Source of the DNA: an uncultured Bacteroidales bacterium
Lineage (GTDB): Bacteria > Bacteroidota > Bacteroidia > Bacteroidales > GCA-2711565
Reading direction: 5' to 3'
Length of the DNA: 64,000 bases
Assembly (NCBI GenBank): GCA_942491855.1
Contig: CALOCL010000025.1
Location: forward strand, 66,910 to 130,909
Shown here: piece by piece, positions 27,021-37,442 of the stretch
Position numbering within the stretch: the stretch's first letter is position 1
How the letters are laid out: every line of letters begins with the position of its first letter
Translations under genes and position numbers: made by a program
Notes under the pieces: generated by a model
Databases searched by the model: none
Told to the model about the DNA's origin: nothing
The model's input: only the letters and a program-made list of their open reading frames with translations

Positions 27021-27360
27021 ACAATTAAATTTACTCGTGCTTTCACCTTTAATCTAATTCAATTTTTATGGTATGGGAAAACAACATGATTGTGGTTGTA
27101 AAGATAAAGTTTTTTTGTATCCTCCTAACTGTTAATAATTTAACACCGATACTTATAAAATCAATTTTCAAAAAAAAGTGATCACCTCCAGCTTTATCTA
27201 AACTGAATTTAAATAAACTAATTGTTTAATTTTTAATTTATTGAAGAAATATCTTATGAACAATATTCAGGCAGTATTTTGATAAACTTTAATTCTATTT
27301 TTAAAAAATATTGAAATTCAGAATATTTTCTAAATAATCAATTTACAAGATAAAGAATCA

Positions 27361-27402
27361 ATAAAAGAAGCCATCATATATAAGTAATACATGATGGCTT
27401 TT
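27361..27402 (-). terminator. Intrinsic terminator after the M28 peptidase gene
   Basis: AAGCCATCAT ... ATGATGGCTT 10-bp stem. On the minus strand it is followed by a T-rich run. Confidence 0.6.
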
Positions 27403-27419
27403 AGGAAAATTAAATCAAA

Positions 27420-28976
27420 CTATTTTTTATCTTCAATGTAATAACCTTCCCGTGATAAAAGATGATCCAAATTAGCCAATCCCAAGGCAACAACCGCAGT
27501 AACAATAGAAGTATGATTCATGTATTCAGGGATACTCATATTGTATAAATCTCTTTCCGTATGCCAGATTTCGCCATAATTGAAATCATAGCCCAAAGGA
27601 TCACCGGTTCCAAAAGATATGGTTGGAACTCCGTTAATTGCAAAATAAGCATGATCCGATCCACCAGCTCTGGTAGGTTTTCTAGCCGGTTCGCGCTTAC
27701 TTAAAGTGAAAGGAAAATCAGGATTAATATCATTTAATGGCTCACAAATTTTTACAAAATCATCGTACATGGCCTCGGTAACCCTCAAACTGTTTGCAAC
27801 TGTTGGTCCTCCATCACGATTAAAATAATTTGAAATTTTAGCCCATTTGTCTTCGTTATTTTCAACCCAGCTTTTCGACCCCAGTAAACCAAATTCTTCG
27901 CCTGCCCACAAACAAAATAAAATACTTCGTTTAGGTTTTCCTCCAGCTTCCATAATTAATCGAGCTGCCTCCATGGCTACGGTAATTCCTGTTCCGCAAT
28001 CAACACCACCGGTAGCAACATCAAATGCATCCAGGTGTCCTCCAATCATCACATACTCATCCGGATATTTTGTTCCTTTAATCATTCCAATCACATTATG
28101 GTAATTTACCGGTCCCATTTTAAAATGGTTACGGATGTCGAATTCAAGCTCAAATCGTTGTCTTTCCTTCGCCATTTGTTCAATAATTTCATATTGATGC
28201 TCATCGAGTTTGATGTCTGGAACCGTTGGCAAATTGTCGAAAGTCATGTCCGGAAGGTTTTTCCGGTCGTAAAGCACCCTGATCGGATTTGAAGAAGACT
28301 GAATGACTCCAAGGATTCCGGCCTCGCACATCTCCCTGTAAAACAAAGCAGGTTCTTCCACATAAGGAATCATTTCTTTGGGTTCCTTATCCCGGTTACT
28401 CCGATTATACCTTTTGATTTCATTATTTTTTTCTCCAATTTCAGCATTAACTGCTTTTAAAGAATCACGTAAATGGTCAGCCTTTTTAGAGATATCAATG
28501 GGCCAACCATCATTTTTACCTCCAATCAATACCCAAGCTCCTTTTAGTTTTCCTTTCATGCGGTCAAATTCAGTCTGGGTTTTAGGCTCCAGAACCACAT
28601 GACCTTTCTGAACACCTTTAGTCCCTGAGGTATAGGAAGGTGTGGCGAAATGTAATTGCATGCCATTATCACTTAACAAACGTCCGAACCATGGGCCACG
28701 GTTAAAACCAACAGGCAGTTCGCCCGAATAATCCATATCCACCTCCAGTCCCCATTCCTTGAATTTACTGGCAGCCCAAATGGCTGCATTTTCATAAGCA
28801 TCCGATCCAATTAATCGCCCACCAAAGCGATTTGAAAAAACGTCAAGATGATTCATGGTTTGATTATCGATAGTTCCTATTTCAATTATTTTCTCAACTA
28901 CTTTCTTTTGCGAAAAAGCTGATACATTAAGGAATAGAAAAAACAAAACTGATACTGAAATGAATAAGCGTTTCAT
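27420..28976 (-). CDS. Secreted M28-family metallopeptidase
   Basis: 518 aa. Signal peptide MKRLFISVSVLFFLFLNVSAFSQ, Zn-ligand regions GGHLDAFD and WAGEEFGLLGS. Confidence 0.8.
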   Translation of the reverse strand: MKRLFISVSVLFFLFLNVSAFSQKKVVEKIIEIGTIDNQTMNHLDVFSNRFGGRLIGSDAYENAAIWAASKFKEWGLEVDMDYSGELPVGFNRGPWFGRLLSDNGMQLHFATPSYTSGTKGVQKGHVVLEPKTQTEFDRMKGKLKGAWVLIGGKNDGWPIDISKKADHLRDSLKAVNAEIGEKNNEIKRYNRSNRDKEPKEMIPYVEEPALFYREMCEAGILGVIQSSSNPIRVLYDRKNLPDMTFDNLPTVPDIKLDEHQYEIIEQMAKERQRFELEFDIRNHFKMGPVNYHNVIGMIKGTKYPDEYVMIGGHLDAFDVATGGVDCGTGITVAMEAARLIMEAGGKPKRSILFCLWAGEEFGLLGSKSWVENNEDKWAKISNYFNRDGGPTVANSLRVTEAMYDDFVKICEPLNDINPDFPFTLSKREPARKPTRAGGSDHAYFAINGVPTISFGTGDPLGYDFNYGEIWHTERDLYNMSIPEYMNHTSIVTAVVALGLANLDHLLSREGYYIEDKK

Positions 28977-31262: not shown

Positions 31263-32225
31263 CTATTTAGTAATGAGTTTAGGTTGTTTGAACAATTTAT
31301 AGTTTTCGATTACATTAAACTTGTACATTGTCTTTGCTTCATCAGACAAAAATGATTTGTCAACCATTGCCAATATTTTACTCTCATTACTGTTAAAGTA
31401 ATCAATAGTTTTATCTATAATAGTATCTTTTATACTTATGCGTCGTCCAAACTCAATAAAATCATCGCTATTATAGATGTATTTTTCTCCTAATGGCAAA
31501 CTGGTTTGTTCAAATTCTGCAAATAGATTTAATGCTAATAAACTATCCGCAAGATGAATTTTAGTATTCATCAAATCGTATGATGGAGACAGCATCATAT
31601 CTCCGTCAGCAGTTTCCAACAATGAAATGTTTTTTAAATGAACATCACCATTTCCTGTTATGAAATTAAATATCAGAATGCGAAGAAAATCAACTCTATT
31701 TAATGGGCTTAACCATTCCCCAACATCTTGATATGATTTTGATTTATACTTATGAGCGGCTTGTAAAACAGATCCGAAATCTTCCTGATTTAATTTTATC
31801 CCTTTATTATTATAATCAAATCGTCTAGTGATATATGCAGGCATACCATTAGCAAATTTTACAAAAGCACATTCTGCGATTTTTATGCCAAAAACCTGTT
31901 TGGCGATTTGCATAGTCACATGTTCATTTGCAGGTGATTGATCTGGGTTGTCAAATCTTGATAATATTGGTTTAATAATGTACTGTGACTTTTCATCTAC
32001 ATCCATTTTGGGAATTAATTCAATTCCGCGTGGTTTACCAATAAATCCTTTTCGTTGAACTCCTGATATGCTAAATCCCATTGGTTGGCCATCAATCCTT
32101 TTTGAGATATCTTCCCAATTAAATTTAAGTTGAGGGTTGACCTTAGAACGGTCAAATAGTATAGTTTCACAGGATGAACAAAATCCACTTATGTTATCTT
32201 TAAGACATCCATTACATTGTGCCAT
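31263..32225 (-). CDS. hipT: HipT-like Ser/Thr kinase toxin (HipA C-terminal kinase core without the N-subdomain)
   Basis: 320 aa. Gly-rich loop GFSISGVQRKG (SIS motif as in E. coli O127 HipT), catalytic NGDVHLKNISL, Mg-binding SPSYDLMNT. It overlaps the upstream gene by 14 nt. Confidence 0.85.
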   Translation of the reverse strand: MAQCNGCLKDNISGFCSSCETILFDRSKVNPQLKFNWEDISKRIDGQPMGFSISGVQRKGFIGKPRGIELIPKMDVDEKSQYIIKPILSRFDNPDQSPANEHVTMQIAKQVFGIKIAECAFVKFANGMPAYITRRFDYNNKGIKLNQEDFGSVLQAAHKYKSKSYQDVGEWLSPLNRVDFLRILIFNFITGNGDVHLKNISLLETADGDMMLSPSYDLMNTKIHLADSLLALNLFAEFEQTSLPLGEKYIYNSDDFIEFGRRISIKDTIIDKTIDYFNSNESKILAMVDKSFLSDEAKTMYKFNVIENYKLFKQPKLITK

Positions 32226-32556
32226 GTTTAATGTTTTTTACAGTTATTGCTCCTATTGTATCGTATTGACAAGTTAATGCTAATAAACTCCATTCATCAC
32301 TTGGATCAATTCTTAAAGCTTTACAAATCTGTTTTCGATTTTCACCTTCGCTTAGTATGGATTTGAAATAGTGAAATAATTCCTTGGAATGATAAGTTTT
32401 TATCTCCTTTGGCATATTTACCGAAATCGGCCTCGTATTAACATTTTCAACAAATGCATCATCATATTCAAAATGAAAACCCTCATTATCAACCCAAAGT
32501 TCCCCTGCCTTAATATTTCCTTTGTAAATGACTTCTAGCTTGTTTCCGATTTTCAT
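32212..32556 (-). CDS. hipS: HipS-like protein (free-standing HipA N-terminal subdomain)
   Basis: 114 aa. L.V...G...G.L.....G..F.Y...F......P.S..MP, then FF.S.L.EG..R and a D..GA-type C-terminal end, matching the HipA N-terminal 'couple_hipA' region. ATGA overlap with hipB. Confidence 0.8.
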   Translation of the reverse strand: MKIGNKLEVIYKGNIKAGELWVDNEGFHFEYDDAFVENVNTRPISVNMPKEIKTYHSKELFHYFKSILSEGENRKQICKALRIDPSDEWSLLALTCQYDTIGAITVKNIKHGTM

Positions 32557-32771
32557 GTTTTTGAATTATGTCTTTTAACTTCTACTTGTATTTCCAAATT
32601 GAGATATTCAAAAATGTTTTGTAAGACCTCTAATGTTGGGTTTTTAACACCCCTTTCTATTTCTGAGATGGTAGTTTTAGATATACCTGTGAGGTCAGCT
32701 AAATCTCTAATGGTTAGTCCTAATACCATTCTTCTTCTTTTTATTATTTCTCCAATTTCTTTTTTTTCCAT
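32553..32771 (-). CDS. hipB: HipB-like XRE-family HTH antitoxin/repressor
   Basis: 72 aa. IKRRRMVLGLTIRDLADLTGISKTTISEIERGVKNPTLEVL is a canonical Cro/C1 HTH. Confidence 0.85.
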   Translation of the reverse strand: MEKKEIGEIIKRRRMVLGLTIRDLADLTGISKTTISEIERGVKNPTLEVLQNIFEYLNLEIQVEVKRHNSKT

Positions 32772-32778
32772 TTCACTG

Positions 32779-32976
32779 TACCATTATATTGGTAAATATT
32801 TATCAAAAATACTCAATTTGTTTGATAATGTCAATTTTGTACCAGTATAATGATAAATATCTGTCAACAAGTTTAAATCAACGTAAATTGTCAATAAAAT
32901 ACCAGTATAATGGTACGCGAGAGATGAAATATTGAAAAAGAACCTTAATTGAAGGATTTGTACCACTATATTGGTA
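32779..32976. promoter_or_regulatory. Four palindromic operators TACCA-N6-TGGTA spaced about 60.5 bp apart, flanking the hipBST promoter
   Basis: Sites: 32779-32794 TACCATTATATTGGTA; 32840-32855 TACCAGTATAATGATA; 32900-32915 TACCAGTATAATGGTA; 32961-32976 TACCACTATATTGGTA. The minus-strand -7 box TATTTTTG (32804-32811) lies between sites 1 and 2. Confidence 0.75.
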
Positions 32977-33240
32977 TGGGCTATAATAATAAAGTAATTG
33001 GGTTTAATAATATGTTCACTAAAATGTTGAGAAAATGCGCTCTAATTTGATGATTTCTTCCATACCTCTGATCAAGCTAAGGTCAGATATTTCAACCCTC
33101 TTGTCTCGGGAACCAGACTAATTTCAATTTGGTAAGAAAGGTGTTATTAACACCAACCTTAATTCATTAGATTAATGTTTTGATATTTAAAGTTTGAATC
33201 TATACTAAAAAACAGATGATGTTAAAGTGTCTTTTAGATA

Positions 33241-34338
33241 TTATTTTTCAGTTTGTTTGAATATTTCATTTGAATATATTGATTCTACTTCCCCTTCATT
33301 TTTAAAATAAATTATGACATCCTTATCAATTCCAGAGTGAAATATTTTGACCTGTTTTCTTGAATTGTCTATATAATAGAAGATATTTCTCCGCTCATCA
33401 TCAGCAGTTTTTACTAAATAATGTGTTCTATTCTTTTCATTTACAATCGAAGTATAAATATGAGCATTTAAAGTTCCTTGATTTAGCTCAATCCCTGATA
33501 CGTTATAAACATAGTCTGAGAATTTTTGTTTGATATACTTAATAGAGTAAGTTTTATCCATTTCAAGTATTGTGGAAAAATCTTTTAAATGATCAATTAC
33601 TGGTTTGCCATAACTTTTCTTTTCTAATTTTTCTTTCCTTTCTTCAATATAACTCTTGAAATTAGTTTTAATAAATGAAAGAAATGATTTTATTAAGTAC
33701 GACGATTGATTATTTATAGGGTCAATAAGTCCATTACTTTCATCATTAAAAATTTTAATTAGTTTATTAAAGAGAGAGTTATCTTCATTATTCCAATAAA
33801 GATGACATTTTCTTGAATAATCAAGCTTACTAAATGAGAATTCTGAAATATTCGACGGTGAAGGAGTTATATAAAGCAAATAAATTTCAGGATCCAACTT
33901 ACACTCATGATAGAAGTTTTTCAAACCTTTTAACTCTTCTTCTAATTGAGAATCATTCTTATTTATAGATGTATCTGTAATTTTGTTTTCAAGACATATT
34001 GCATATAAAACTTCGTCAGTTCTATTATCAATAATTTCAATTAAAACATCGATATCCCGTCTTTTATTCCTACCAACATTATTAAAATACACTGTCATTT
34101 CGGGAATAATATTTACTGAGTATCCAGAATATTTAGAGAGGTCAGCAATTCTGTTTTCAAATTGAATTTTCAATAAAAAATTACTATCAACTAATAGAAA
34201 TTCATTTAATAATTCTTGCAACAAAAGACTTGATAAACCATGGTCTTCATTAGGATTTAGCATGTAAGCTAAGAAAGAACTTACATTTGGTTCATTAATT
34301 GAGCCATCATTTGATGATAGAATACGGAAAATATTCAT
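33241..34338 (-). CDS. PD-(D/E)XK-type nuclease-like protein with uncharacterised C-terminal half
   Basis: 365 aa. N-terminal NIF.IL....SINEPNVSSFLAYMLNPNEDHGL, then RRDIDVLIEI ... AICLENKI (D ... E-x-K arrangement), as in PDDEXK-family proteins common in defence islands. I cannot assign residues from about 215 to 365. Confidence 0.55.
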   Translation of the reverse strand: MNIFRILSSNDGSINEPNVSSFLAYMLNPNEDHGLSSLLLQELLNEFLLVDSNFLLKIQFENRIADLSKYSGYSVNIIPEMTVYFNNVGRNKRRDIDVLIEIIDNRTDEVLYAICLENKITDTSINKNDSQLEEELKGLKNFYHECKLDPEIYLLYITPSPSNISEFSFSKLDYSRKCHLYWNNEDNSLFNKLIKIFNDESNGLIDPINNQSSYLIKSFLSFIKTNFKSYIEERKEKLEKKSYGKPVIDHLKDFSTILEMDKTYSIKYIKQKFSDYVYNVSGIELNQGTLNAHIYTSIVNEKNRTHYLVKTADDERRNIFYYIDNSRKQVKIFHSGIDKDVIIYFKNEGEVESIYSNEIFKQTEK

Positions 34339-34536
34339 AATAAATGGTTAGTGGTATATAATCAATTTGGTTTAAACTTTTAGGTCAGAATCTCAGAGAG
34401 TATTAACTCAAAGTTAATTGAATTTGTGGAAGTAAAATGAGGAAGTGGTTATTTATTTTCAATCAAATCCTTGCTCAAACCTTGCTTATTAAAAAAGGCT
34501 CCAAAACTTGATGTCTTGAAACCCTTATTGTAGTAG

Positions 34537-34610
34537 TGACTCCGAAGGGATTCGAACCCCTAACCCTCTGATCCGAAGTCAGATATTCTATCCAGTTGAA
34601 CTACGGAGCC
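34537..34610 (-). tRNA. tRNA-Arg (anticodon UCG)
   Basis: GGCTCCGTAGTTCAACTGGATAGAATATCTGACTTCGGATCAGAGGGTTAGGGGTTCGAATCCCTTCGGAGTCA folds as a cloverleaf with a 7-bp acceptor, anticodon loop CTTCGGA and T-loop TTCGAAT. Confidence 0.93.
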
Positions 34611-34694
34611 ATTATTTAGTGGCGCAAAGTTAAGAATTCATTTTTGTAATTTTATAAAAGATTTCAGATTCTCTCAAAAAAAAAATTTGATTTT

Positions 34695-34725
34695 CTTGAC
34701 CTTTTAAAAATTACGCTTACATTTG
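34695..34725 (+). promoter_or_regulatory. Candidate Bacteroidota-type promoter for the asnA leader
   Basis: -7 box TACATTTG (34718-34725, consensus TAnnTTTG), with a TTG at 34696-34698 about 19 nt upstream. Confidence 0.4.
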
Positions 34726-34745
34726 TTGTCATAAATACAAAATAA

Positions 34746-34826
34746 ATGACTCAAAATTTAAATAATAATCTTTCTAATAATAACACTAATAATAATTTAT
34801 TAGGTGTCGGAAAGCTTATGTTTTAA
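34746..34826 (+). CDS. Asn-rich leader peptide 1 (MTQNLNNNLSNNNTNNNLLGVGKLMF)
   Basis: 26 codons, 10 of them Asn (9 AAT, 1 AAC) in three NNN runs. The ORF 3' end (GTC GGA AAG CTT) is complementary to the left arm of the downstream terminator. Confidence 0.6.
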   Translation: MTQNLNNNLSNNNTNNNLLGVGKLMF

Positions 34827-34845
34827 ATTCAAAAAGAATATTTTA

Positions 34846-34880
34846 AAAAGCCTTCCGAAAATTCGGAAGGCTTTTTTTTT
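34846..34880 (+). terminator. Attenuator terminator 1
   Basis: GCCTTCCG-loop-CGGAAGGC (extendable to 10 bp) followed by T9. No upstream plus-strand gene needs it. Confidence 0.8.
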
Positions 34881-34890
34881 ATCAAAAAAA

Positions 34891-34941
34891 ATGGAAATGA
34901 ATCGTATCAATAATTTCAATCATAATAATTTTTCACCTTAG
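34891..34941 (+). CDS. Asn-rich leader peptide 2 (MEMNRINNFNHNNFSP)
   Basis: 16 codons, 6 of them Asn (all AAT). The stop codon TAG (34939-34941) overlaps AGCAGGC (34940-34946), which is complementary to the left arm of terminator 2. Confidence 0.5.
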   Translation: MEMNRINNFNHNNFSP

Positions 34942-34965
34942 CAGGCGATGCACATTCTATGTCCT

Positions 34966-34994
34966 AAGCCTGCTTTAACGAGTAGGCTTTTTTT
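34966..34994 (+). terminator. Attenuator terminator 2
   Basis: AAGCCTGC (34966-34973) pairs with GTAGGCTT (34982-34989, one G-U) and runs into T7. Confidence 0.65.
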
Positions 34995-35115
34995 ATCCAT
35001 TTTTTAAACAAACAATAAAAATTAATCAAATCAAGACTGCATGAAAATAATGATTGGGCTAAAAAAAATCAAGTTTTATCAAATATCTAAAGTCTTGTAT
35101 CTAACATCTTAAAAT

Positions 35116-36120
35116 ATGAAAAGCGATTTTTTAAAAACAGAACTATCAATCACATTTGTAAAAGAAACCTTTGAAAAACAACTTTCGAGTCAATTATCTC
35201 TAACCAAAATATCTTCTCCGCTCATGGTGCTGGATGGTACCGGAATAAACGATGATTTAAACGGAATTGAACGCGTAGTAAACTTTCCGGTAAAAGGCCT
35301 GCAAGAGAAACGAGCAGTGATTGTAAACTCATTGGCAAAATGGAAAAGAATCAGGTTAAAAGAACTGGAAGTTGAAGCCGGAACGGGTATCCTAACAGAC
35401 ATGCGTGCCATTCGTCCGGATGAGGATTTTAGTCCCATTCACTCCATTTATGTTGATCAATGGGATTGGGAAAAACATCTCGATTCGTCAAAAAGGGATA
35501 TTGAAACCCTCAAGGCTGAAGTACAGAAAATTTATACGGCCATCAGAAGTACTGAACAAAAAGTGCAGGAATCATTTTCTGAACACCAGGCTGTTTTACC
35601 CGAAGAAATTGTTTTTATCCATGCCGAGGAATTGCGTGAGCTTTATCCGGATCTTACACCCAAAGAACGTGAAGATAAAATTGCTGAAAAATTCAGGGCT
35701 GTATTCATCATTGGGATTGGTGGAGACATTGGATCAGGAGAGATTCATGATGGTCGTGCCCCGGATTACGACGATTGGACCAGTAGCTCACTGAATGGGT
35801 ATAAGGGATTAAACGGTGATATCATTGTTTGGCATCCGGAATTAAAAAGTGCCTTTGAAATTTCTTCGATGGGCATACGTGTTGATAGAACATCCTTGCT
35901 GAAGCAATTGGAAATACGGGATCAGCTTTCAAAAAAAGAACTGTTTTTTCATCAGCAAATTTTAAATGATAAACTTCCTCAAAGCATTGGTGGTGGAATT
36001 GGCCAATCACGACTATGCATGTTCATGCTAAAGAAAAAGCATATCGGCGAAGTACAGGTTAGTTTATGGCCCGATAAAATCCGTGAGGAGATGAAAAGTG
36101 AAGGGGTTTACCTAATGTGA
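35116..36120 (+). CDS. asnA: Aspartate-ammonia ligase (asparagine synthetase A)
   Basis: 334 aa, colinear with E. coli AsnA from the first residues (I.FVK..F..QL, LAKWKR, ALRPDED.SP.HS.YVDQWDWE, GIGG, RAPDYDDW, LNGDI.VW, SSMGIRVD, GGGIGQSRL). Confidence 0.95.
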   Translation: MKSDFLKTELSITFVKETFEKQLSSQLSLTKISSPLMVLDGTGINDDLNGIERVVNFPVKGLQEKRAVIVNSLAKWKRIRLKELEVEAGTGILTDMRAIRPDEDFSPIHSIYVDQWDWEKHLDSSKRDIETLKAEVQKIYTAIRSTEQKVQESFSEHQAVLPEEIVFIHAEELRELYPDLTPKEREDKIAEKFRAVFIIGIGGDIGSGEIHDGRAPDYDDWTSSSLNGYKGLNGDIIVWHPELKSAFEISSMGIRVDRTSLLKQLEIRDQLSKKELFFHQQILNDKLPQSIGGGIGQSRLCMFMLKKKHIGEVQVSLWPDKIREEMKSEGVYLM

Positions 36121-36362
36121 TAAGCCTAAAGCTGAACTAAGTATATCAGATGAAAAGGAGTTCCAACATTTCAAGTCTTTAGTTTTTGAGCTAGCGAGAT
36201 TTGAGATAAAAGACTTTAGATTCTAGCAATCGTCTCTTGTCTAAGATCTAAAGTCTAACATCTAGTTTATGAACAAAACAATGTAGAACAATTCATCATT
36301 TCTGCGCTTTTTACTTAACGAAAAAGCTTAATTTTGAGCTTTAATCAATCAAAGTTAAATCC

Positions 36363-37442
36363 ATGTCAGAAAAAATATTAGATAAAGTTGCTCCCGGAGT
36401 AGTTGCCGGAGATGATGTTCAGGAAATTTTTAGAATTGCCAAAGAAAACAAGTTTGCCTTACCTGCTGTTAATGTGGTTGGTACAGATTCTGTAAATGCT
36501 GTTTTAGAAGCTGCGAAAGTGGTAAATTCACCGGTAATCGTTCAGTTTTCAAGTGGAGGTGGAAGCTTTTATGGCGGTCAGGGTGCTGACAACACAGGAG
36601 GAAAAGCAGCCTTACAAGGGACAATTTCAGGGGCACTTCATGTGCATCAAATGGCAGAAAACTATGGAGTTCCTGTGATCATCCATACCGATCATGCGGC
36701 TAAAAAATTATTGCCTTGGATTGATGGTTTACTGGATGCCGGAGAAAAACATTTTGAGCGTACCGGAAAACCATTGTTTAGTTCCCATATGCTTGACTTA
36801 TCCGAAGAAACACTTGATGAAAACATTGCCATTTGTAAACAATACCTTGGCAGGATGAGCAAAATTGGCATGACCCTCGAAATTGAACTGGGAATTACCG
36901 GAGGTGAAGAAGATGGAGTGGATAATACAGGTGTGGATAGCTCCAAACTTTATACCCAGCCCGAAGAAGTGGCTGCCATGTACGAAGCATTAAGTTCGAT
37001 CAGTCATCGGTTTACCATTGCTGCTGCTTTTGGAAATGTGCATGGTGTTTACAAACCCGGTAATGTAAATCTCGAACCCGTCATTCTAAAAAATTCTCAG
37101 GAATTTATTCAAAAGAAATTCAATACAGGTGCGAATCCTGTAAGCTTTGTGTTCCACGGTGGTTCAGGTAGTGAACCTGCTAAAATTAAAGAAGCAATCT
37201 CGCATGGAGTTGTCAAAATGAATATCGATACCGATACCCAATGGGCTTTCTGGTTAGGAGTGAAAGAATATGTAGAGAAAAATCATGCATACCTGCAAGC
37301 ACAAATTGGTAATCCGGATGGAGATGATAAGCCTAACAAAAAATATTATGATCCCCGAAAATGGTTAAGAGCTGGCGAACTCGCCATTGTTGATCGACTG
37401 AAAATTGCCTTTGAAGATTTGAATGCGATAAACAGAAATTAA
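36363..37442 (+). CDS. fbaA: Class II fructose-bisphosphate aldolase
   Basis: 359 aa. PAVNVVGT, IIHTDHAAK, LEIELGITGGEEDGVDN and FHGGSGS motifs. Confidence 0.93.
   Translation: MSEKILDKVAPGVVAGDDVQEIFRIAKENKFALPAVNVVGTDSVNAVLEAAKVVNSPVIVQFSSGGGSFYGGQGADNTGGKAALQGTISGALHVHQMAENYGVPVIIHTDHAAKKLLPWIDGLLDAGEKHFERTGKPLFSSHMLDLSEETLDENIAICKQYLGRMSKIGMTLEIELGITGGEEDGVDNTGVDSSKLYTQPEEVAAMYEALSSISHRFTIAAAFGNVHGVYKPGNVNLEPVILKNSQEFIQKKFNTGANPVSFVFHGGSGSEPAKIKEAISHGVVKMNIDTDTQWAFWLGVKEYVEKNHAYLQAQIGNPDGDDKPNKKYYDPRKWLRAGELAIVDRLKIAFEDLNAINRN

Follow-up and report, generated by a model that had tools for sequence, protein, structure and literature searches.

Tandem asparagine-rich leader peptides upstream of asnA in Bacteroidota: a candidate ribosome-mediated attenuator built twice in series

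Described attenuators and the asnA leader

Textbooks describe attenuation by leader peptides for His, Trp, Leu, Thr, Phe and Ile/Val. Here, the leader of asnA, the gene for aspartate--ammonia ligase, was analyzed in a 64-kb stretch of DNA from an uncultured Bacteroidales bacterium (the window, in whose coordinates all positions are given) and in related genomes. Two small open reading frames (ORFs) saturated with asparagine (Asn) codons lie upstream of asnA, and each is followed by an intrinsic terminator whose 5′ arm can also pair with a segment at the end of the ORF. This leader is, with high confidence, predicted to be a ribosome-mediated transcription attenuator that senses charged tRNA-Asn and is built twice in series.

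The his leader (hisL; His_leader RF00514) and the trp, leu, thr, phe and ilv leaders of Proteobacteria resemble the asnA leader in the dense end-product codons of a short leader ORF and in the mutually exclusive antiterminator (regions 2:3) and terminator (regions 3:4), where a stalled ribosome frees region 2. The asnA leader differs from them in its amino acid (Asn), its single gene asnA, its occurrence in Bacteroidota and its two full units in series, and also in the helix between regions 1 and 2, which is significant (p ≤ 0.05) in only 14% of leaders. A his-like design with many regulatory codons was predicted to yield a large dynamic range (PMC1183508). Within Bacteroidota, leader-peptide attenuators have already been reported, namely Bacteroid-trp (RF01692; PMC2864571) and, in Flavobacterium psychrophilum, a His-rich leader of hisG and an Ile-rich leader of ilvE; asnB is present in this species and no asnA entry was found (PMC9723704 supplement). 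These leaders share with the asnA leader the phylum, the logic, the short A-rich 5′ leader without a Shine-Dalgarno site and an intrinsic terminator each, while they serve another amino acid and gene and none was reported as tandem.

Two serial leader ORFs are known from the mgtCBR leader of Salmonella, where mgtM and mgtP sense ATP and proline and act additively (PMC3641672). Both leaders have two short ORFs with alternative stem-loops, and one ORF of mgtCBR uses Pro codons, whereas the asnA leader combines two Asn-rich units, each with a canonical intrinsic terminator of its own. Tandem complete riboswitches are also known, such as double TPP riboswitches and triple T-boxes, for which a sharper and less leaky response has been argued; they are alike in having two full sensor and terminator units for one signal, while their sensors are ligand- or tRNA-binding RNAs and not leader peptides. 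In Firmicutes, Asn-specific T-box leaders are found upstream of asnA and asnS. They share with the asnA leader the signal (tRNA-Asn charging), the terminator/antiterminator output and the class of target gene, whereas they bind uncharged tRNA directly without translation and the sensor proposed here is the translating ribosome. In E. coli, asnA is controlled by AsnC, a DNA-binding protein encoded next to it, with the same end-product repression of the same gene, while no asnC-like gene is conserved next to asnA in the loci studied here.

In the Rfam 15 search (E ≤ 10), the plus strand matched Phe_leader (RF01859, 31.0 bits), His_leader (RF00514, 30.3 bits) and Thr_leader (RF00506, 23.5 bits) below their thresholds of 49-55 bits; these sub-threshold matches lie mostly on the terminator, and a Phe_leader match of 34 bits falls on the opposite strand. 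The same search gave no match to Bacteroid-trp (RF01692), and no T-box match at E ≤ 10 in 33000-37000. In neither Rfam 15 nor the searchable literature, from which subscription-only surveys are excepted, was a description of an Asn or asnA leader-peptide attenuator found. An earlier note on this DNA knew of no described Asn leader and of none arranged in tandem; the first part agrees with these searches, while the second goes a little too far, since tandem leader-ORF attenuators are known from mgtCBR, there with two different signals (PMC3641672). The asnA leader is very probably a classical his/trp-type attenuator with a new amino-acid specificity (Asn), doubled in series, and it would give asnA of Bacteroidota its first proposed mode of regulation.

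Components of the two units

The features of the leader and its flanks in the window are as follows.

34746-34826, plus strand: leader ORF1, MTQNLNNNLSNNNTNNNLLGVGKLMF, 10 Asn in 26 codons
34770-34775, plus strand: possible region 1, CUUUCU, a potential partner of GGAAAG at 34809-34814 in an anti-antiterminator
34807-34817, plus strand: 5′ strand of the unit 1 antiterminator (region 2), UCGGAAAGCUU, within the 3′ end of ORF1
34845-34880, plus strand: unit 1 intrinsic terminator, with 5′ arm 34845-34858 (region 3), 3′ arm 34863-34876 (region 4) and T9 at 34872-34880
34891-34941, plus strand: leader ORF2, MEMNRINNFNHNNFSP, 6 Asn in 16 codons
34940-34946, plus strand: 5′ strand of the unit 2 antiterminator, AGCAGGC, overlapping the ORF2 stop codon
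34966-34994, plus strand: unit 2 intrinsic terminator, with stem 34966-34989 (10 pairs) and T7 at 34988-34994
35116-36120, plus strand: asnA, aspartate--ammonia ligase, the regulated gene (TIGR00669 equivalog)
34696-34725, plus strand: candidate Bacteroidota-type promoter, with −33 TTG at 34696-34698, a 19-nt spacer and −7 TAcaTTTG at 34718-34725
34536-34610, minus strand: tRNA-Arg(TCG) gene

The identity of AsnA is clear from its match to TIGR00669 (393.7 bits, E = 7e-118, cut-off 292.8). The earlier note had described the region between tRNA-Arg and asnA as free of protein genes and as holding two Asn-saturated mini-ORFs, two plus-strand intrinsic terminators and, in each unit, a segment competing for the left arm of the terminator, and every one of these elements was recovered. 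The intergenic gap of 505 nt contains no ORF of at least 60 aa. The Asn codons of ORF1 lie at 34755, 34761-34769, 34776-34784 and 34788-34796, and those of ORF2 within 34900-34929, followed by Phe-Ser-Pro and the TAG stop codon at 34939-34941. No further mini-ORF with an NNN run or more than six Asn occurs in the 64-kb window.

A terminator scan of 2.1 kb returned exactly these two sites, with T9 ending at 34880 and T7 ending at 34994. Shuffled sequence is expected to give 1.4 ± 1.2 such sites, so the number of terminators is not above chance and by itself proves nothing. The stem of the unit 1 terminator (34845-34876) has 14 pairs, six of them G-C, and its hairpin reaches −20.3 kcal/mol. In the alignment of 41 unit 1 leaders (A1), 95.8% of the cells of this stem are paired and five pairs are changed on both sides, which none of 500 shuffles equaled, and the same stem was predicted independently by RNAalifold.

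The competing pairing of unit 1 (34807-34817 with 34848-34858) has one A.C mismatch and an energy of −12.7 kcal/mol (p ~0.01 against shuffled upstream segments), and that of unit 2 (34940-34946 with 34968-34974) reaches −13.7 kcal/mol (p = 0.007). Across the 41 leaders, the region 2 homologue GGAAGGCU pairs with the terminator 5′ arm in 90.8% of cells, compared with at most 60% when the partner was slid, and four pairs are changed on both sides; these statistics refer to the majority register of A1, from which the clade of the window is offset by one column. The possible helix between regions 1 and 2 is part of the minimum-energy fold of the free RNA in the window (−5.4 kcal/mol, p = 0.07). 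In Hymenobacter, the antiterminator loop contains a small inner hairpin, AATCA-N6-TGATT (A1 columns ~115-131; ~2277-2293 in locus L009), which the clade of the window lacks.

The folding check proposed in the earlier note, with and without masking around the stop codon, gave a result that depends on the length of the transcript. Masked to the Asn codons, nascent transcripts ending before the 3′ arm formed the antiterminator (−12.3 and −14.3 kcal/mol), and masked to the stop codon they lost it, switching as proposed, while equilibrium folds of the full leader did not discriminate between the two states.

TTG and TAnnTTTG at −33 and −7 are the consensus of Bacteroides promoters, and this motif was used in place of a sigma-70 scan, which is inapplicable to Bacteroidota. 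The candidate promoter sits 20 nt upstream of ORF1 and predicts a transcription start near 34731. Both of its elements are kept in the five nearest relatives (alignment A2). Of 52 leaders, 13 have TAnnTTTG no further than 70 nt upstream of their start, compared with 2.3% of background 70-nt windows, while Hymenobacter leaders have only a conserved near-match, TAtaCTTG. No TAnnTTTG was seen between units 1 and 2 when the window sequence and alignment A2 were inspected by eye, the interval not having been subjected to a motif scan; the two units are therefore most likely transcribed in series.

Conservation, geometry and codon usage in relatives

A search of genomes with the AsnA protein gave 80 loci with 59-91% identity, the nearest being metagenome-assembled genomes (MAGs) of uncultured Bacteroidales, and 79 of these had upstream sequence. 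Most of the 80 loci carry Asn-rich mini-ORFs 150-350 nt upstream of asnA. Examples of the encoded leader peptides are MIHILNNNLSNNNANNNLLDVGKFMF in the clade of the window, MILLNNNNLNNNSNNTLG in Flavobacteriales and MRHFRNNLQNNNSNNNLIRDWKAIAPLEN in Hymenobacter, whose loci encode MRHFRNNLQNNNSNNN... at 55-68% GC. The alignment check proposed in the earlier note was thus positive, with terminators and antiterminators in the same geometry, and its caveat that AAT is a frequent triplet in AT-rich DNA is removed because the leaders also occur in GC-rich genomes. Upstream of asnA, the 36 kb from the 80 loci contain 65 mini-ORFs of 8-40 codons with at least five Asn, and the other ~894 kb, where both strands were counted, contain 25, an enrichment of about 65-fold; none of these 25 resembles a leader.

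A covariance model of unit 1 was built from the 41 leaders of A1 and run over 605 kb, where its matches include many sequences outside the training set. Of the 79 testable genome loci, 53 had unit 1 at 59-143 bits, as did seven metagenome contigs (99.6 bits in the window), and no other match above 42 bits was obtained over the 605 kb. The carriers belong to three classes of Bacteroidota: MAGs labelled Bacteroidales; Flavobacteriia (Seonamhaeicola, Fluviicola); and Cytophagia (Hymenobacter, Solirubrum, Flammeovirgaceae). About 40 of them are Hymenobacter genomes. A candidate extra copy at 27359-27453 on the minus strand of the window (29.6 bits) was rejected as an ordinary terminator behind a 518-aa ORF (27420-28976, minus strand).

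A metagenome pattern scan that was not conditioned on asnA (AATAATAA...GGAAGGCT...AAGCCTTCC) gave ten matches, of which seven have Asn-rich leader ORFs and three are unrelated hairpins without an Asn ORF. In six of the seven leaders asnA is the next gene, and in the remaining one the contig ends. The flanks of asnA fall into 40 upstream and 47 downstream gene clusters, indicating that the leader travels with asnA, and tRNA-Arg as a neighbor is restricted to the clade of the window.

By ORF listing and covariance model, no Asn leader was found upstream of asnA in loci of Sphingobacterium (L033, L036, L042, L044, L045, L050, L054, L062, L064, L065, L067, L068 and L072), of Chitinophagales (L032, L038, L052, L069-L071, L077 and L079) or in Membranihabitans. 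A hairpin ~125 nt upstream of asnA in Sphingobacterium is the terminator of the upstream Fe-S assembly gene (PF01521). An AsnC-like regulator adjoining asnA was also considered and rejected, the upstream gene being that of the Fe-S assembly protein in the leaderless Sphingobacterium loci and a gene for AdoHcy hydrolase or a PD-(D/E)XK protein elsewhere.

An in-frame start codon is present in all 61 unit 1 leaders (59 ATG, and GTG in L014 and L078), and the frame through the Asn run is open in every one of them, while the +2 frame of AAUAAU is rich in stop codons. Among 62 units, 90% have an antiterminator complement of the terminator 5′ arm at p ≤ 0.05 against shuffles. Region 2 begins 10-18 nt (mode 15) past the first base of the last Asn codon, while the stop codon has no fixed place, lying at −3 to +49 nt from the start of region 2. 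It is therefore the spacing between the Asn run and region 2 that stays constant, in line with what attenuation demands. The footprint of a ribosome extends ~12 nt 3′ of its A site, so that the start of region 2 should coincide with the leading edge of a ribosome stalled on the last Asn codon.

Region 2 is conserved as RNA, since GGAAGGCU encodes D-W-K-A-I in one frame, used by some Hymenobacter leaders, and G-R-L-L in a second frame, used by others. Altered terminator stems are accompanied by matching changes in region 2: in L013, AGAGAGGCU is matched by AAGCCUCUCG and CGAGAGGCU, and in L081, CAGAGAAGG is matched by CCCUUCUCUG and CAGCGAAGGG. The stem GCCUUCC/GGAAGGC is strikingly conserved across classes, which is explained by the two partners, region 2 and region 4, that region 3 has to accommodate.

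The Asn codons of the leaders also differ from those of the gene downstream. At loci with GC of at least 0.5 (40 units, mostly Hymenobacter), AAU makes up 229 of 311 leader Asn codons (74%) compared with 3 of 154 (2%) in the asnA coding regions of the same loci. In attenuator modeling, a sensitive response is predicted to need a specific choice among synonymous codons and regulatory codons seldom used in bulk mRNA (PMC1183508). Alternatively, the AAU bias could keep the Asn stretch unstructured, and through this preference the switch may also be tied to wobble decoding or to whether tRNA-Asn carries queuosine.

A complete second unit is present in 19 loci, comprising the clade of the window, Flavobacteriales, one Flammeovirgaceae MAG and several metagenome contigs. 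This unit was analyzed per sequence, the MAFFT alignment A3 being too rough in the stems for column counts. Its ORF begins a few bases past the U tract of terminator 1. The unit 2 terminator is invariant across the clade of the window; in other lineages the stem differs and region 2 is altered to match. The covariance model trained on unit 1 only also finds second units at 26-42 bits (L015 2264-2396, L006 2354-2473, L086 5130-5257, L083 416-535, L003 2267-2385 and L002 2265-2381), and on the basis of this detection unit 2 is perhaps an old duplicate of unit 1, so that the second attenuator may have arisen by duplication.

The second leader peptides have a common layout of 4-8 Asn in a run, 0-2 other residues and 1-3 Pro, with region 2 right behind, and they end in FSP*, LPP*, KSPP*, APP*, RPPPQRR* or SPPDGG.... 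One to three Pro codons stand between the Asn run and the antiterminator in 19 of 19 second leaders, and all four CCN codons are in use, indicating selection for Pro on the level of the amino acid, or at least of a codon that is decoded.

Proposed mechanism and rival explanations

Under the proposed mechanism, transcription would start near 34731 from the Bacteroidota-type promoter, and a ribosome would translate ORF1 with RNA polymerase ahead of it. With ample Asn-tRNA, the ribosome would cross the ten Asn codons and, heading for the stop codon, cover region 2 (34807-34817); region 3 would then be left with region 4 only, and the terminator at 34845-34880 would end the transcript. With scarce Asn-tRNA, the ribosome would stall on an Asn codon; its front edge lies ~12 nt beyond the A site and would halt just before region 2, and the free region 2 would pair with nascent region 3, block the terminator and allow read-through. 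The same decision would be repeated at unit 2 (ORF2 34891-34941, pairing of 34940-34946 with 34968-34974, terminator 34966-34994), and only transcripts that pass both checkpoints would reach asnA. Read-through would be the product of two probabilities, giving low leakage and a steeper response. The his/trp-type logic put forward in the earlier note is supported, at the level of sequence and folding models, by the conserved geometry, the tandem arrangement in 19 loci and the nascent folds.

Several points weigh against this mechanism. All of its support is computational. The covariation of the antiterminator is modest, with shuffles equaling its covariation score in 6 of 500 cases and its percentage paired in 106 of 500, which is explained by the high conservation of the sequence. 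The unit 1 terminator (−20 kcal/mol) is far more stable than the antiterminator (−12 kcal/mol), and equilibrium folds of the full leader with ribosome masks gave the terminator every time, so that the attenuation model needs kinetic, co-transcriptional control; an equilibrium preference for the terminator is also seen in classical attenuators. The 1:2 anti-antiterminator or pause helix, tested against shuffles, reaches significance in just the 14% of leaders given above. Bacteroidota mostly lack Shine-Dalgarno sites, and the predicted translation of the mini-ORFs consequently has no support from a ribosome-binding motif. The Asn run of ORF2 in the window is interrupted (NN-F-N-H-NN) and weaker than in relatives. 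Finally, the loci are phylogenetically related, with ~40 from one genus, and the counts overstate the number of independent observations.

Chance, that is, AAT-rich triplets in AT-rich intergenic DNA next to ordinary or stray terminators without any regulatory link, is close to negligible as an explanation. It would fit the window GC of 31-38%, the two terminator-like sites in 2.1 kb, which agree with the shuffle expectation, and the position of the first hairpin between an A run and a T run, which resembles a bidirectional terminator. However, ORFs and hairpins recur upstream of asnA at 55-68% GC, Asn-rich mini-ORFs are enriched 65-fold there, the covariance model scores 59-143 bits and the spacing from the Asn run to region 2 is fixed. 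There is also no convergent gene needing a terminator, the upstream tRNA being on the other strand and pointing away, and AsnA identities of 59-91% exclude that the relatives are assembly duplicates of one sequence. It is also very improbable that the mini-ORFs encode functional Asn-rich peptides, or that leader RNAs of ~150 nt, released by termination, work in trans, with the position upstream of asnA being secondary. Trans functions of an attenuator-derived RNA and a leader peptide are reported for rnTrpL/peTrpL of Sinorhizobium (PMC6614838, PMC7298713), and a terminated RNA would end in a strong hairpin and hence be stable. Against such a role, leader 1 keeps the nucleotides of its C-terminal part while reading them in different frames, its N-termini vary freely, no partner genes are conserved nearby and the element is strictly linked to asnA; moreover, a trans role would add to cis attenuation rather than replace it.

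A switch that works without translation, in which the AAU/AAC repeats or GGAAGGCU/AGCCUUCC bind a protein, tRNA-Asn (T-box-like) or a metabolite and the ORFs are incidental, is improbable. Translation of the mini-ORFs is predicted only, T-boxes of Firmicutes do sense tRNA-Asn directly, and GCCUUCC/GGAAGGC is conserved across classes beyond the need of a plain terminator, but this conservation is accounted for by the three-way pairing constraint, and no T-box or other Rfam family matched at or above its gathering threshold. Decoding is further indicated by the in-frame start and open Asn frame in all 61 unit 1 leaders despite the stop-rich +2 frame, by a distance from the last Asn codon to region 2 that equals the leading-edge footprint of the ribosome and by the use of all four CCN codons for the Pro of unit 2, which points to decoding over RNA sequence. 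Somewhat less improbable, though still unlikely, is that unit 2 mainly senses proline, EF-P or general translation status, so that the tandem integrates two signals. The fixed place of 1-3 Pro codons in all 19 second leaders would fit this, as would the stalling of ribosomes at consecutive prolines unless EF-P acts (PMC6544042, PMC5811046) and the precedent of mgtP in Salmonella, where the tandem mgtCBR attenuators sense different signals, one of them via Pro codons (PMC3641672). Yet unit 2 has 4-9 Asn codons, mostly in unbroken runs of 4-8 in relatives, which far outnumber Pro, and the clade of the window has one Pro followed by the stop codon. A ribosome held at Pro would moreover cover region 2 and lead to termination, so that proline shortage would silence asnA, for which there is no obvious logic.

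Within the preferred reading, in which both units sense charged tRNA-Asn, the prolines could have a different role. Basal read-through limits classical attenuators, and release is slow after a C-terminal proline. Consecutive prolines stall ribosomes unless EF-P acts (PMC6544042, PMC5811046). The unit 2 prolines would possibly park non-starved ribosomes on region 2, by slow bonding of Pro to Pro or by slow release, and so lower basal read-through. A two-stage attenuator with differently built stages is tentatively suggested, in which stage 1 depends on translation across the antiterminator strand and stage 2 on a Pro/Pro-Pro brake that suppresses basal read-through; the brake would act via EF-P-dependent elongation or slow termination after Pro. 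If this is true, asnA expression would also depend on EF-P and on translation-termination status, and across Bacteroidota the family would exemplify a natural, near-digital leader-peptide switch proofed against leakage.

The large family over three classes is absent from Rfam and could become a new family for genome annotation. Its serial units, its preference for rare AAU in GC-rich genomes and its conserved Pro, a putative brake, would make it a test bed for attenuator sensitivity and leakage, which have so far been treated mostly by modeling (PMC1183508). The element is experimentally accessible in many cultured Hymenobacter strains, and the leader could be used as a reporter of Asn-tRNA charging in Bacteroidota.

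Some further features were observed around the leader. The bin at 32001-36000 has a GC content of 0.308, compared with 0.335-0.385 in the rest of the window. The ORF upstream of the tRNA (33241-34338, minus strand) has a marginal match to a PD-(D/E)XK nuclease (PF14281, 22.8 bits) and no NCBIfam match. A block, ATCTAAAGTCTTGTATCTAACATCTTAAAA, at 35080-35112 abuts the asnA start codon and contains three ATCT(A/T)A repeats; it is kept in the window, L001, L002 and L003 and missing from L004 and L006, where terminator 2 lies only ~35-40 nt from asnA. A 23-codon ORF, MKIMIGLKKIKFYQISKVLYLTS, at 35042-35111 (plus strand) stops 4 nt short of the asnA ATG. In the closest relative, L002, its frame ends after seven codons, and given this early stop the ORF is probably not conserved.

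Nine Hymenobacter loci (L009, L010, L016-L018, L021, L023, L025 and L046) are without unit 2, and all nine have AAAAAACUCCCG-N4-GGGAG-N8-CGUGUGCCUUUUU between terminator 1 and asnA. This element is a hairpin with a U-rich tail ~45-95 nt upstream of the asnA start (~2395-2445 in L009) and has no Asn-rich ORF; possible roles are a second checkpoint of another kind or the control of translation.

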